UHGV virus genome: UHGV-1329780
Source: a virus
DNA length: 40,311 nucleotides
Strand: one strand, 5' to 3'
How positions within the stretch are numbered: the first letter of the stretch is position 1; every line of letters begins with the position of its first letter. The notes beneath the pieces are model-generated. The model searched no databases and had not been told where the DNA came from. It saw nothing but the letters and a program-made list of their open reading frames with translations. The position numbers and the translations under genes were made by a program. Positions 18,826-22,785 of this stretch are shown here, one piece after another.

Positions 18826-19170
18826 TCAGAACTCTTCGATGTTCCAGCCACCACCTGCTTTCTTTGGTTTAACCGTTACCCCGATGATTCGGAACGGATA
18901 CTGATCTGCGGCGACTTTGGTTTTCACCCTGGCGTCGTCGGTCCAGAAACCTTTCACTTCGTGCAGTTCCATCTCTCCGGTGGCGAGCATCACAGCGAAA
19001 TCTGGCGTATAGAACGTGTTGTCAGCTAACCGCAGCTTGATACCCTCGAATCGATACCAGGCGATTTCCCCTGCACGTTTACGCAGCTCAAGGTGCTGGC
19101 AATACGCAGATTCAGTTTTGTTCATCTGGCCTGTTTTGAGTCGACCAAGAGCCTGTATCTGTTTTCTCAT
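18826..19170 (-). CDS. DUF1064-like phage protein
   Basis: 114 aa; first gene after a promoter/operator region; SD GAGGT lies inside a TTACC-N5-GGTAA dyad 3 nt upstream of the ATG. Confidence 0.4.
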   Translation of the reverse strand: MRKQIQALGRLKTGQMNKTESAYCQHLELRKRAGEIAWYRFEGIKLRLADNTFYTPDFAVMLATGEMELHEVKGFWTDDARVKTKVAADQYPFRIIGVTVKPKKAGGGWNIEEF

Positions 19171-19173
19171 GAT

Positions 19174-19250
19174 TTACCTCTGAGGTAATTAAAAACCACA
19201 TAAGACATGAAATCAATAGAGTTTATAATATTTTGTTACCTAACAGGTAA
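19174..19250 (-). promoter_or_regulatory. Promoter/operator region with two TTACC-N5-GGTAA dyads upstream of the nin-like operon
   Basis: Dyads at 19174-19188 (TTACCTCTGAGGTAA) and 19236-19250 (TTACCTAACAGGTAA) in an AT-rich intergenic gap. Confidence 0.45.
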
Positions 19251-19287
19251 TTATCGAGGCGTAAAAAAATGCGCTATCGCGCTGGTA

Positions 19288-20064
19288 TTACTTGATAAAT
19301 CCTGCCGCCTTTCCCCGCCTGTATTCCTCCATCAGCCACTGCGCCGGTGTTATTCCCCCAAGGGTGGCGGCGTTAGGCATGCACCCGAAACTTCGCCCTG
19401 GTGGATGGTAAACGTCTCTCCCTGTGTCCGGAGGTGTACTCATGGGCTCTGGCTTTGCCTGTATGCTGATCACCGGATCGGGTATCTGCTGTCCGGAAGC
19501 CACCTTTTTCGCCCAATCATCGAGCAGCCTGCGCGCGTGTTTCTCAACCTCACTCTCGCTAAGCTGGCGCTGATACATTGCACGACGGGTATCACATACG
19601 ACCCAGTACATAACCGGATGCCGCCACGGGAATCTTTCGGGACCACCAGGATATAAACTTTTTTCCTTGCTGTACCGGTGAAACTCCGCCATCACATCGT
19701 CAATGGTGACGCCAAGAACCATCTTGCTGTCTTTGCACCACTTGATGAATTGCCCTGGCGACGGCCAGAACGGAGATTCACTGGCGCGGGCGTGGCGCAT
19801 ACCAGCGTTAACCTGTTCCATTGTAGTGATCCCATTCTCCAGAAACGCAAGCATCCATTGCTTACGGAATTCATTAAGTTTGTTCTGCTCCCTTATGGTC
19901 GAAACGCTTGCAGGAAATGCAGCCTGTAACTGGACAAATAGTTCATTGAAAATTCTAGCAACCTGCTCCTTTTTGCCATTGCTGTCACGCCGCTCTTCAT
20001 GCACAGCAACACCATGCTCACGTAAGCGATCGTACTCATTGAGAAGTTCTGGAGTTGATTTCAT
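19288..20064 (-). CDS. Replication protein P-like helicase loader
   Basis: 258 aa; by-eye match to lambda P blocks FPAS, NGITTMEQVNAGMR and PSPGQF; downstream of the O-like gene. Confidence 0.8.
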   Translation of the reverse strand: MKSTPELLNEYDRLREHGVAVHEERRDSNGKKEQVARIFNELFVQLQAAFPASVSTIREQNKLNEFRKQWMLAFLENGITTMEQVNAGMRHARASESPFWPSPGQFIKWCKDSKMVLGVTIDDVMAEFHRYSKEKSLYPGGPERFPWRHPVMYWVVCDTRRAMYQRQLSESEVEKHARRLLDDWAKKVASGQQIPDPVISIQAKPEPMSTPPDTGRDVYHPPGRSFGCMPNAATLGGITPAQWLMEEYRRGKAAGFIK

Positions 20065-20866
20065 CCCACACCCCTTCTATCCAGTCAGTGTTATTCCAGT
20101 CAAGCTCATCGCTTTTCCCGGCATTTTTTGATTTTCCCCTGATATGATTTACGTGCCTGGCGAATTTTTGTTCCCACTGAACCTGCGTGAACACTTTGCC
20201 CTCAGCCATCCAGTAATCCCGGAATGCAGCAAGTTCAGCAGGTGTAAATTCCGGTTCCGGCAGGGCCGTTCCCCACAGCGCAGCACGCCGCCGAAAATCT
20301 GGCGACGGTAGCCAGCCATCTGTCATCGGAAATTTCCCGATGGGTTCACTCAGGCCATCCAGAAATTCAGGTTCTGCCACCTGCAACGGCGTACTGTTCG
20401 CTTCACTGGTCGGAGCACCCTCGCGCACGTGCGCTATGTGTGGGGTTTTATATATATCTTCCTCTTCCTCTTCCTCTGGTAACTCCTTTTGTAACGCTGT
20501 TGGCGTTACTTTTTGCGTTACTCGTTTTCTATGCTCTGCCACTCTTCTATTCGTAAGTGCACGTTTTTTCGATGATTCTCCATTATGTCGCTCAAAGTTT
20601 GGAAGAATTAGTTTGCCGTCATGATAAGCAAGCCATCCGACGCTAATGAGGGCGTCAGCAAATCCTGTAATAAAAGCGAGTCTATCAAGTACTCCTTTTG
20701 TAACGCTGCCAGCGTTACCGTCTATTGTTTGCTGGTCAGCCCATGCCCATATACGAACCAGCTTTCCAAGAACAGCATCTGGATCAATACCCAGAATTTC
20801 TGCTATCTGAAAAATTTCAGGTTTATCAGGAGTGATAACTTCAACCTTAATCCAGCTGCTTGCCAT
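20036..20866 (-). CDS. Replication initiation/organiser protein (O-like) with internal origin-like repeats
   Basis: About 276 aa from ATG 20866 (GAGGGG RBS); acidic Glu6 linker; two DNA-level 27-bp repeats and an AT-rich patch inside the gene; directly upstream of the P-like gene. Confidence 0.5.
   Translation of the reverse strand: MASSWIKVEVITPDKPEIFQIAEILGIDPDAVLGKLVRIWAWADQQTIDGNAGSVTKGVLDRLAFITGFADALISVGWLAYHDGKLILPNFERHNGESSKKRALTNRRVAEHRKRVTQKVTPTALQKELPEEEEEEDIYKTPHIAHVREGAPTSEANSTPLQVAEPEFLDGLSEPIGKFPMTDGWLPSPDFRRRAALWGTALPEPEFTPAELAAFRDYWMAEGKVFTQVQWEQKFARHVNHIRGKSKNAGKSDELDWNNTDWIEGVWDEINSRTSQ
20483..20738 (-). repeat. Candidate replication origin: two 27-bp iteron-like repeats plus AT-rich segment inside the O-like gene
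   Basis: CTCCTTTTGTAACGCTGTTGGCGTTAC at 20483-20509 and CTCCTTTTGTAACGCTGCCAGCGTTAC at 20712-20738, each with dyad arms GTAACGC/GCGTTAC; extra GCGTTAC half-site at 20515-20521; AT-rich TTTTATATATATC and (CTC)n tract at 20446-20478. The repeats are translated in different frames. Confidence 0.5.
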
Positions 20867-21059
20867 AGGTTTCCCCTCTTGCACTCTTTAGTGCACAAGC
20901 AAATTCATTACGATGGCGGTTGGCGCTATTCATTGCACATTCAACACATGTTCCGTTCAGAACATACCTTTCAGAGAGATGGCCGTGACGGCACCGCTTT
21001 CCTGTGAAATAGCGATTTAACCCGGCTTTTGCGGCCTCCATTCTGGTTACTATCTTCAA
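20847..21059 (-). CDS. Small Cys-containing (zinc-ribbon-like) protein
   Basis: 70 aa from a TTG start at 21059 with an AAAGGGG SD; CRHGH...CVEC pattern; between the cro-like and O-like genes. Confidence 0.4.
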   Translation of the reverse strand: MKIVTRMEAAKAGLNRYFTGKRCRHGHLSERYVLNGTCVECAMNSANRHRNEFACALKSARGETYGKQLD

Positions 21060-21207
21060 TTTTTCCGCCCCTTTTTGTTATTGATATTGGCTATTTTGCA
21101 CAATTGGAAAATTTGATCAACCAGATTTGGTTTTTTATTACCCTTAAGGTGCGAATAGATATGAAAAGACCGCCGGATGGCGGTCTACAGAGGGTTGTGG
21201 CTGGATA

Positions 21208-21438
21208 TCATGAGTAGAAGAAGTATGCCAGTTCTGCTTTTGAGCGCAGCCATTGTCTTGTTTTACAGGCTTTAAAAAGCCCATTCATCAATACTTTACC
21301 TGGCATTTTGCGCTTGCCTGTTAAGTGAGTCTGGATATAGTGACTCGTCGTTCCGGCTTCCTGTGCGAAGGCTTCACGCTCATCCGGAGTAAGTGCAAGC
21401 CAGTGCTTTTTGAAATCGAAATGTCCGTTATCGCTCAT
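21208..21438 (-). CDS. Cro/CII-like small HTH regulator
   Basis: 76 aa; helix-turn-helix-like segment; first gene leftward of the divergent operator region. Confidence 0.5.
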   Translation of the reverse strand: MSDNGHFDFKKHWLALTPDEREAFAQEAGTTSHYIQTHLTGKRKMPGKVLMNGLFKACKTRQWLRSKAELAYFFYS

Positions 21439-21474
21439 AGCTATTGCCTGATATTTATTTCAGATAATAAATAT

Positions 21475-21537
21475 TCACCCATAAGGTAACAAAAATCAAG
21501 GATAGTTACCTATGAGGTGCATTTACCTGTTGGGTAA
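21475..21537. promoter_or_regulatory. oR-like operator cluster: three TTACC-N5-GGTAA-type dyads in the divergent intergenic region
   Basis: 21475-21489 TCACCCATAAGGTAA (variant), 21506-21520 TTACCTATGAGGTGC (variant), 21523-21537 TTACCTGTTGGGTAA (full), between the minus-strand cro-like gene and the plus-strand repressor gene. Confidence 0.55.
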
Positions 21538-21592
21538 TATTGCTTTAAATTGAATCATCTACTGATTCATATATGAGGCGATTTTCCAGAAA

Positions 21593-22177
21593 ATGAAAAG
21601 TATCCAGGACGTCCGCAGGCAAAATCTCAACGACTTGATCGACCGTGAATTCAATGGTGTTCAGACGCGGATGGCAGAAAAACTTGGAACTCAGGCAAAT
21701 CTGGTAAACCGCTGGGCTCTTGGCAAGAAGGTTATCGGCGACCAGGTTGCACGAAAAATTGAAGCTGCCGCCAATAAACCCCGTAACTGGCTTGATATTG
21801 ATCGTTCGCTTTCTCAGGAGGGTTTTCAGCCTGTCGGCCCGAGCGATATAGGTCAGCTGGCGGCTCACAACCTGGAACGCTGGATGAGCGAAAGCCGCGA
21901 CCTTTCAACACAGGGAAAACTTCACCGCGCATCCGGCGTCGCCCAGGTGACAATCAGCCGCCTGTTAAACAATGAGGTCAGCGTTTCCATTTCCACCCTG
22001 GAGAATGTTGCATCCGCATTCGGGCGTCACGGATATGAACTACTGATTCACCCGCACGACCCTGCGACTATCAACTATGACCGCTCACGCTACGCATTGT
22101 TACCCGAAACCGAGAAAGCAAAGATCGAAAGTTACATTGAATTTGTCATCAACCAGAACGAAAAAAGCAAACAATAA
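21593..22177 (+). CDS. CI-like prophage repressor with two HTH domains and no S24 peptidase domain
   Basis: 194 aa; HTH-like segments (MAEKLGTQANLVNRWALGK and ASGVAQVTISRLLNNEVSVSISTLENVASAFG); no Ser/Lys autocleavage module evident; divergent from the cro-like gene and followed by a strong terminator. Confidence 0.6.
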   Translation: MKSIQDVRRQNLNDLIDREFNGVQTRMAEKLGTQANLVNRWALGKKVIGDQVARKIEAAANKPRNWLDIDRSLSQEGFQPVGPSDIGQLAAHNLERWMSESRDLSTQGKLHRASGVAQVTISRLLNNEVSVSISTLENVASAFGRHGYELLIHPHDPATINYDRSRYALLPETEKAKIESYIEFVINQNEKSKQ

Positions 22178-22199
22178 AACTATAGTTTTCAGTAAGTAA

Positions 22200-22221
22200 G
22201 CCGCCTCATGGCGGCTTTTTT
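22200..22221 (+). terminator. Intrinsic terminator after the repressor gene
   Basis: GCCGCC-TCAT-GGCGGC hairpin followed by TTTTTT. Confidence 0.75.
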
Positions 22222-22234
22222 ATTGCCAGATAGA

Positions 22235-22311
22235 TTACCTTACGGGTAATTTTTTTAACTCATATCTATTGACACCAAACCAAATAAGCATAATTATTAC
22301 CCCAACGGTAA
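22235..22311 (+). promoter_or_regulatory. pL-like promoter with two flanking TTACC-N5-GGTAA operators
   Basis: -35 TTGACA at 22269-22274, -10-like AATTAT 17 nt downstream; dyads at 22235-22249 (TTACCTTACGGGTAA) and 22297-22311 (TTACCCCAACGGTAA). Confidence 0.55.
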
Positions 22312-22330
22312 CAGACCGAGGTAACAAGTT

Positions 22331-22483
22331 ATGCAGTGGAAAATCATCAACGGTTGGTACTGCGTTACTGCATGCGGATTCATGAGCTGGAAGTTCCGCA
22401 CCTTACAGGAAGGCATTAAGTGGGCTTTCGTCAGCAAAGAAGCTCGCGATGTAGCCAACGATAACGAGATATGGGAGGGCTGA
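22331..22483 (+). CDS. Small protein, first gene of the early-left operon
   Basis: 50 aa (below the ORF-track cutoff); GAGG RBS; stop TGA at 22481-22483, 2 nt before the next start. Confidence 0.35.
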   Translation: MQWKIINGWYCVTACGFMSWKFRTLQEGIKWAFVSKEARDVANDNEIWEG

Positions 22484-22485
22484 TA

Positions 22486-22785
22486 ATGAACGTTAATCAG
22501 CAGAAAAATCTTCAAAAAATCATGCTGGCATTCGACAAGGACTACCGCCTGTCAGAACAGCTATATGACCGACAAGTTGAACTGATTGAGAGCATCCGAC
22601 TTCATCAACTGTCCTCAACTTTCGACGTTGTAACAGGCAAAGGCGTTCGTCAGGAAGTGCTGGAGGCTGCTAAAGACAGCCCTGAGTTCGAAGAACTGAT
22701 GGATGCCTACCGGCGCGAGGCAATGGCAATTATAGCGCGCTGGGATCTGGCGGATCAGCTTGATGGGCAGAGGGACGCGGCATGA
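22486..22785 (+). CDS. Hypothetical early protein
   Basis: 99 aa from ATG 22486; ATGA overlap with the downstream exonuclease gene. Confidence 0.45.
   Translation: MNVNQQKNLQKIMLAFDKDYRLSEQLYDRQVELIESIRLHQLSSTFDVVTGKGVRQEVLEAAKDSPEFEELMDAYRREAMAIIARWDLADQLDGQRDAA

Follow-up and report, generated by a model that had tools for sequence, protein, structure and literature searches.

The virus genome UHGV-1329780, 40,311 nucleotides (nt) long and referred to here as the window, was analysed around a replication initiator gene on the minus strand at 20036-20866. The gene carries two palindromic sites (A and B) and a low-stability tract in its own coding sequence, and these elements were considered as a candidate replication origin. 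The gene encodes 276 amino acids (aa), was placed in PHROG 2509, 'replication initiation protein' (E 1e-129), and is treated as a functional analogue of lambda O. The open reading frame (ORF) list gives it as 20036-20884 with an upstream GTG start at 20884; the likely start is the ATG at 20866, which is preceded by a GAGGGG ribosome-binding site. The N-terminal domain (N-domain, aa 1-115) is encoded at 20522-20866 (minus strand), is predicted to be winged-helix-like and is the proposed origin-binding domain. The C-terminal DnaT-like domain (C-domain, aa 171-252; 20111-20356, minus strand) was matched by Pfam PF17948 over residues 185-255 (66.6 bits, cut-off 25) and by the PDB DnaT chains 6aep, 4ou6 and 9zbt (E 1e-19 to 1e-20). 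A lambda P-family helicase loader gene follows at 19288-20064 on the same strand and overlaps the 3′ end of the initiator gene by 29 nt. Its product was assigned to PF06992, Phage_lambda_P (E 5e-56, 189 bits, cut-off 26), and also to PHROG 109, 'P-like helicase loader'. Escherichia phages vB_EcoP_ZX5 and HEMP4 match the region at 99.8% identity, and TL-2011b matches it at 97%. The initiator homologue is labelled 'replication initiation protein' in TL-2011b and 'primosomal protein I' in ZX5. The feature table of TL-2011b, the one checked of these three, lists no origin.

A repeat search returned a 28-nt direct repeat at 20482-20509 and 20691-20718, with 25 of 28 bases identical. Each copy holds a 19-base-pair (bp) palindrome, GTAACGC-N5-GCGTTAC, and all three mismatches fall within the 5-bp spacer. 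A preliminary description of this DNA had reported two 27-bp repeats identical at 24 of 27 positions, which were recovered at 20483-20509 and 20692-20718, each with the GTAACGC/GCGTTAC dyad arms that had been claimed. The distance of 229 bp given there was in error: the copies lie 209 bp apart start to start, with a gap of 181 bp between the 28-mers or 182 bp between the 27-mers.

Site A is the palindrome GTAACGCTG-C-CAGCGTTAC at 20700-20718, within the repeat copy at 20691-20718. It is a perfect 9-1-9 palindrome with two half-sites and lies in the N-domain coding region, where codons 50-56 specify GNAGSVT. Site B lies in the linker coding region and is a cluster of four half-sites at 12-bp steps (20479-20521), with its central palindrome at 20491-20509 inside the repeat copy at 20482-20509. 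The half-sites read, on the plus strand, GTAACTC at 20479, GTAACGC at 20491, GCGTTAC at 20503 and GCGTTAC at 20515, so that two forward copies are followed by two reverse ones. Three of the four are exact; GTAACTC (20479-20485) is degenerate with one mismatch. The extra GCGTTAC spans 20515-20521. All half-sites of both sites fall within 20479-20718, inside the initiator gene.

The exact 14-base palindrome was found only at these two places in 40 kb, with ~1.4e-4 occurrences expected. Pairs of 28-mers matching at 25 or more of 28 positions are expected ~1e-3 times in the window and ~5e-7 times within one gene. The half-site itself occurred 11 times in the window (3.8 expected), and five of the 11 occurrences lay within 228 bp. 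A chance origin of the repeats is excluded.

Conservation of the sites was followed at two levels. Site B was kept in all close relatives, with an extra half-site on either side. The same palindrome was also present in two copies ~207-210 bp apart in Xanthomonas CP2 (41% aa identity) and in Pseudomonas VW-6S and PAN70 (52-54%). A genome scan with one genome per species yielded 80 loci which, with five phage loci, gave 85 species-level loci; the hosts in the scan included Enterobacterales, Pseudomonas, Xanthomonas, Burkholderiales, Planctomycetota, Verrucomicrobiota and others. At 75 of the 85 loci, one palindrome lay at gene position ~150 and a second, with at least 9 of 10 arm bases identical, lay 189-231 bp downstream; the arms of sites A and B were identical at 10 of 10 bases in 68. 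The repeats, whose conservation in relatives had been proposed as a check, are thus retained in all close relatives and in most distant ones.

Selection at the DNA level was assessed with 80 IMG/VR relatives and phages BUCT554 and ST11-OXA245phi3.2, which were reduced to 47 distinct sequences spanning the first 396 nt of the gene (78-100% nt identity, ~90% protein identity). Degenerate third positions were counted where the amino acid was invariant. Seven of the eight such positions in the four core arms were fixed, against 12 of 90 outside the arms. Only three runs of at least 8 nt were invariant, two in site A (gene positions 149-158 and 160-168) and one immediately past site B (384-396), and the central base of site A varied freely. 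Such a pattern, with the arms frozen and the spacer free, would be expected from a DNA-binding protein that acts as a dimer. High-GC hosts retained the rare codons GGT and GTT at the sites.

These counts bear on whether the similarity between the sites could be a by-product of a repeated peptide motif (GNAxSVT), or of chance. The spacing was a multiple of three at 66 of the 75 loci, where both sites encode G-N-A-x-x-V-T/S in the same frame, as a peptide repeat would require. At the other nine, which include the window lineage, it was not. The two copies in the window are translated in different frames because 209 mod 3 is 2, and they read GNAGSVTKGV and VTPTALQKEL; with 7 of 8 synonymous arm positions fixed, this bears out the earlier proposal that the repeats are conserved as DNA. 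Frozen synonymous positions, rare GGT and GTT codons in high-GC hosts and a third copy in non-coding DNA of some relatives all oppose a peptide origin, and the expectation for chance is ~1e-8. The difference in frame and the test on synonymous sites already refute the peptide-motif reading, and peptide motif or chance is scarcely credible as an explanation.

The half-site word was found to differ between lineages while the layout stayed the same. It was switched at all sites to TTGCGC at locus L127, to GTCAC in a Vibrio phage and to CTAACG at locus L115. In epsilon15 and SPN1S the word is GTCCGC, and each of the two clusters holds four half-sites, two in either orientation, spaced at 11-bp steps. 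Arms that are identical within a genome and change in concert between genomes are the signature of a sequence-specific binder acting in trans. The same data weigh on the proposal that the palindromes are not protein sites but form hairpins in the nucleic acid, with a role as antisense terminator, RNase site or cruciform. A terminator scan flagged both palindromes on the plus strand, and the single-stranded DNA was predicted to fold at about -7.3 kcal/mol (z -3.6 to -4.3), which speaks for hairpins. However, self-complementarity would suffice for a hairpin, yet the arms of A and B are identical to each other in 68 of the 85 loci and different phyla retain the word TAACG. The T-run that follows 20509 is simply the A5 spacer to the extra half-site, which lies on the other side in most relatives, and unpaired extra half-sites at 11-12-bp steps have no role in a hairpin. 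An Rfam search of 19000-22500 returned nothing but chance hits near 22160. Hairpin function is regarded as highly improbable.

The gene that accompanies the sites was identified from linkage over 86 loci. The N-domain was present at 86 of 86, the P-like loader at 35, the DnaT-like C-domain at six, and the cro-like, cI-like and 70-aa genes at two each. YdaU of Rac type provided a natural exchange. In E. coli 442/2 and phage vB_EcoS-673R7, an N-domain of the window type (66-68% identity over aa 1-138), with its palindromes, is joined to the C-domain known from K-12 YdaU, and a DnaC-like loader (YdaV) comes next. K-12 YdaU has a DUF1376 N-domain, and the palindromes are absent. Rac YdaU thus differs between strains (L091, L092) by a swap of the N-domain, with the C-domain and the DnaC-like YdaV shared. 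K-12 YdaU was rejected as a homologue of the window protein: the similarity was not significant, and only the C-domain of the Rac-like variants matches it. Across these genomes the sites travel with the N-domain, and not with the C-domain, the loader or the immunity genes. It is very likely that the sites are functional protein-binding DNA tied to the N-domain.

Binding by another factor, such as a host protein, a phage repressor or the 70-aa Cys-rich protein, would leave the initiator without this role. The weak fold assignment of the N-domain leaves some room for such a factor: nothing relevant was found in Pfam (N-domain alone, E<=1) or NCBIfam, and the predicted model, which is winged-helix-like, gave nothing significant in a Foldseek search of the PDB, so that the winged-helix assignment is suggestive. 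The N-domain alone, however, co-occurs with the sites, as opposed to the 70-aa, cro-like and cI-like genes with two of 86 loci each. A host factor is further disfavoured by a half-site word that differs between lineages within one host group and is common across phyla. Recognition by a factor other than the initiator is accordingly rated as quite improbable.

The initiator family comprised 7,022 clusters (50% identity) at E<=1e-3 and 4,692 at E<=1e-10. Among its more distant members, loci L107 and L108 (Stieleria magnilauensis) and other loci in Planctomycetota and Verrucomicrobiota encode homologues of 54-64% identity, with the same GTAACGC palindromes. Two homologue copies lie ~44 kb apart on a single Stieleria chromosome, and the sites of the Verrucomicrobiota copies are more degenerate.

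Site B is followed, in the direction of the gene, by a tract that is homopyrimidine on the plus strand and homopurine on the coding strand (20457-20477), made up of (GAGGAA)n and encoding the Glu6 linker. The tract is a proposed component of the DNA unwinding element. At 21 nt it is the longest homopurine/homopyrimidine run of the whole window. It adjoins a 12-bp patch of A and T only, TTTTATATATAT, at 20446-20457, which is the proposed point of first strand opening. The AT-rich stretch that had been described beside the Glu6 region was confirmed in this position: the 16-mer TTTTATATATATCTTC at 20446-20461 is the least stable 16-mer duplex of the window.

In close relatives the conserved block consists of site B, CCAGAG(GAAGAG)n and ATATA(A/T)A...TAAAACCCC, whatever comes after it. 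Homology breaks just past the A/T patch, at ~20441, into at least five unrelated C-terminal modules, and the tract therefore marks a module junction. The GAGGAA hexamer (20459-20476; loci L030-L078) was present in 2-5 copies among otherwise near-identical relatives, which looks like slippage within the proposed unwinding tract. Across the family the 60 nt after site B were enriched in purine (0.66 versus 0.55) and in A+T (0.56 versus 0.46; both p~1e-13). Within the first 800 nt of the gene, the 21-mer of lowest stability lay 0-80 nt after site B at 60 of 75 loci, where ~8 would be expected by chance. A low-stability tract after site B was found even in high-GC hosts. The tract of SPN1S, ...CCAGAGAAGAG...AAGATAAAACCCCACACATAG, is nearly the same as that of the window despite the other half-site word.

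Further signals were sought around the tract. A 12-bp palindrome just past the AT patch, GCGCACGTGCGC (20423-20434), was tried as a lambda-like flanking inverted repeat and rejected, being unconserved and folding no better than shuffled sequences; it is probably incidental. No DnaA boxes were found within or near the initiator gene in the window. A perfect DnaA box (TGTGGATAA) was observed ~50 nt after the AT patch at loci L039, L042, L047-L049 and L059, which have another C-terminal module.

A third palindrome was located 31-43 bp upstream of the start codon at loci L004, L091, L095, L096, L098 and L101-L105 (Rac-like and other Enterobacterales). This copy may serve as an operator in autoregulation or may belong to the origin as a third site. 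With it comes the main rival explanation, in which the initiator or a different regulator controls transcription (autoregulation or roadblock) through the palindromes as operators, and replication starts at some other place. An identical palindrome in so typical an operator position in many Enterobacterales relatives speaks for this, as do winged-helix dimers on 19-bp palindromes, the classic repressor format. The upstream copy is, however, absent from the window lineage, and the immunity region has different repeats of its own, resembling TTACCTATGAGGT, in three copies. Operators alone also leave it unexplained that 60 of 75 loci have the least stable, purine-rich stretch of the gene after site B and that this stretch is retained across unrelated C-terminal modules. 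Operators in place of an origin are considered unlikely; the two functions are compatible and not exclusive.

The palindromes and the tract are judged likely to form a phage replication origin of lambda type, embedded in its own initiator gene. Comparative evidence in the form of constraint on the arms, concerted changes of word, linkage to the N-domain and a meltable tract supports the probable replication origin of the preliminary description. The initiator family appears from its sequence to be unrelated to lambda O and uncatalogued, with a two-part site arrangement.

The following mechanism, from N-domain binding through cluster looping, tract unwinding and helicase loading to origin activity, is inferred throughout. 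Dimers of the N-domain would bind the 19-bp palindromes at site A (20700-20718) and in the site B cluster (20479-20521), where four half-sites would leave room for two dimers. The two clusters, ~20 helical turns apart, would probably be joined in one nucleoprotein complex. This complex, with supercoiling and rightward early transcription, would open the polypurine tract and the A/T patch (20446-20477). The DnaT-like C-domain would then hold the exposed single strand and/or bind the P-like loader (19288-20064), which would deliver host DnaB.

Several points weigh against an origin at this position. There are just two full palindromes, 209 bp apart, with no contiguous array, and the pure A/T patch is just 12 bp long. 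The spacings between A and B are without convincing helical phasing (resultant 0.31 over unique values). The upstream palindrome of the relatives fits autoregulation at least as well, and some or all of the sites could be operators. A switch of GC skew was sought at the origin and was uninformative, as the skew just follows the direction of transcription. The literature covered (epsilon15, TL-2011b, ydaU/oriJ, replication modules, DnaT-like initiators) yielded no account of this origin or family, and a paper on the Bcep22-like phage JC1 had no bearing on it.

The closest parallel in layout is ori-lambda, which lies in the middle of O and consists of 19-bp inverted-repeat iterons bound by O dimers, with an AT-rich tract; two iterons and the AT tract are enough for unwinding (PMC7466680). 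In lambda, including the variants in the Stx phages 933W and P27, as with the proposed origin of the window, the origin occupies the linker-coding part in the middle of the initiator gene, and 19-bp inverted repeats suited to a dimeric initiator have an AT-rich tract directly beside them. Both initiators are modular: the N-terminal part binds the origin and the C-terminal part recruits the loader, roles that are proposed for the window protein. The next gene downstream is in both cases a P-family loader gene, and the genes belong to a rightward early operon in which cro-like and cII-position genes come first. The AT region of lambda also has a purine/pyrimidine strand asymmetry, as does the tract of the window.

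The differences are also clear. Lambda has 4-6 contiguous iterons, whereas the window has no contiguous array of at least four within ~100 bp: its half-sites are split into two clusters 209 bp apart, of which one falls within the DNA that encodes the proposed DNA-binding domain. The A/T stretch is roughly 40 bp in lambda and 12 bp in the window, where it is joined to a polypurine tract. Lambda O belongs to an unrelated family; the half-site word GTAACGC differs and the C-domain is DnaT-like. Membership of the window initiator in the lambda O family was rejected: PF04492 (Phage_rep_O) gave no match, and at E<=0.01 the whole protein returned DnaT and one chance hit. The likeness to lambda ori in gene O that had been drawn earlier therefore holds for the layout and for the P-family loader, and fails for the initiator family.

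An assignment of the initiator as DnaT was likewise rejected. NF002770 scored 92.4 bits against an equivalog cut-off of 201, and residues 171-252 alone matched. E. coli DnaT shares just its C-terminal 80 residues, the single-stranded DNA-binding domain, with the window initiator. The label 'primosomal protein I' is misleading because just one domain matches (92 versus 201 bits).

Iteron plasmids (RepA, pi, RepE) have a winged-helix initiator, a fold that is suggested for the N-domain of the window protein. They resemble the window in having repeated sites beside an AT-rich unwinding element (a proposed one in the window) and in the joint evolution of initiator specificity and sites. Plasmid iterons are, however, tandem direct repeats of 17-22 bp, bound by monomers and usually outside rep, whereas the window has palindromes within the gene. 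Rep proteins gave no sequence or significant fold match to the window initiator. An iteron plasmid origin was rejected for the window, where the sites are palindromes and the sole direct repetition spans 209 bp. The term 'iteron-like' in the preliminary description is thus better replaced by two separated palindrome clusters.

In Bacillus phage SPP1, oriL lies in gene 38, which codes for the origin-binding replisome organiser and itself contains the boxes bound by that protein together with an AT-rich region. The protein family and the boxes of that system differ from those of the window.

The Rac prophage has an active origin, oriJ (PMC3945230). Rac of E. coli 442/2 and phage vB_EcoS-673R7 share the window N-domain and carry palindromes at the same gene positions, together with the upstream third copy. 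The C-domain and the loader (DnaC-like YdaV) of Rac-type elements differ from those of the window. K-12 YdaU has an unrelated N-domain and no palindromes, and the classical K-12 oriJ is therefore not this sequence.

A wider reading is offered with about an even chance of being correct. It proposes that one self-contained origin cassette is common to a phage and prophage initiator family that comprises at least 7,000 clusters and ranges from Enterobacterales to Planctomycetota and Verrucomicrobiota. Its components would be a winged-helix N-domain with one of its binding sites in its own coding sequence, a second cluster ~20 turns downstream and a purine-rich unwinding tract that encodes the charged linker. 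It would recombine exactly at the unwinding tract with interchangeable loader-recruiting C-domains, among them DnaT-like domains with a P-like loader, YdaU-type domains with a DnaC-like loader, and others.

The flanking early region was annotated from consensus scans and family searches. A promoter-like site upstream of the cro-like gene (21464-21492, minus strand; 9 of 12 matches to the consensus, a pattern match only) is a candidate for the rightward early promoter, and a transcript from it would cross the origin. A strong terminator-like hairpin lies in the gap between the cro-like gene and the 70-aa ORF (21167-21186, minus strand). It reads AGACCGCCATCCGGCGGTCT followed by a T-run and has an 8-bp stem with six G-C pairs; its position matches that of tR1 in lambda. 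The 70-aa Cys/His-rich ORF (CRHGH...CVEC; 20847-21059, minus strand) occupies the cII position, and the initiator gene begins within its end. The ORF was matched by PHROG 1081 (unknown function) and by no Pfam or NCBIfam family. The divergent cI-like helix-turn-helix gene is at 21593-22177. Three TTACCTATGAGGT-like elements are found between the cro-like and cI-like genes, at 21475, 21506 and 21523 (within 21475-21535), and the same intergenic region holds a perfect 7-5-7 palindrome, TGAATCATCTACTGATTCA, at 21551-21569. These elements and TGAATCATCTACTGATTCA are probably immunity operators, unrelated to the GTAACGC sites. On the other side of the locus, the gap between the P-like gene and a DUF1064 gene (19180-19270) is very AT-rich (GC 0.25).

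Origins embedded in modular initiator genes are well known, and the added value here lies in an architecture that is family-wide and readable from sequence. If correct, the proposed origin would provide a sequence-readable origin for common temperate phages, including relatives in enterohaemorrhagic Escherichia coli (EHEC) strains, Rac-like prophages and epsilon15-like phages. The label 'primosomal protein I' in databases would be corrected, and a missing family of N-terminal origin-binding domains would be defined. The gene would be a natural example of overlapping constraints, in which the DNA that encodes a DNA-binding domain and a flexible linker is also the DNA to be bound and melted by the protein. 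Half-site words that change in concert across lineages would offer material for studying the evolution of initiator specificity and for the construction of mutually compatible, orthogonal replicons. Should the cassette also prove real, the origins of thousands of prophages would become readable from sequence, and its two-part layout would imply initiation through a looped complex, in contrast to the compact O-some of lambda.

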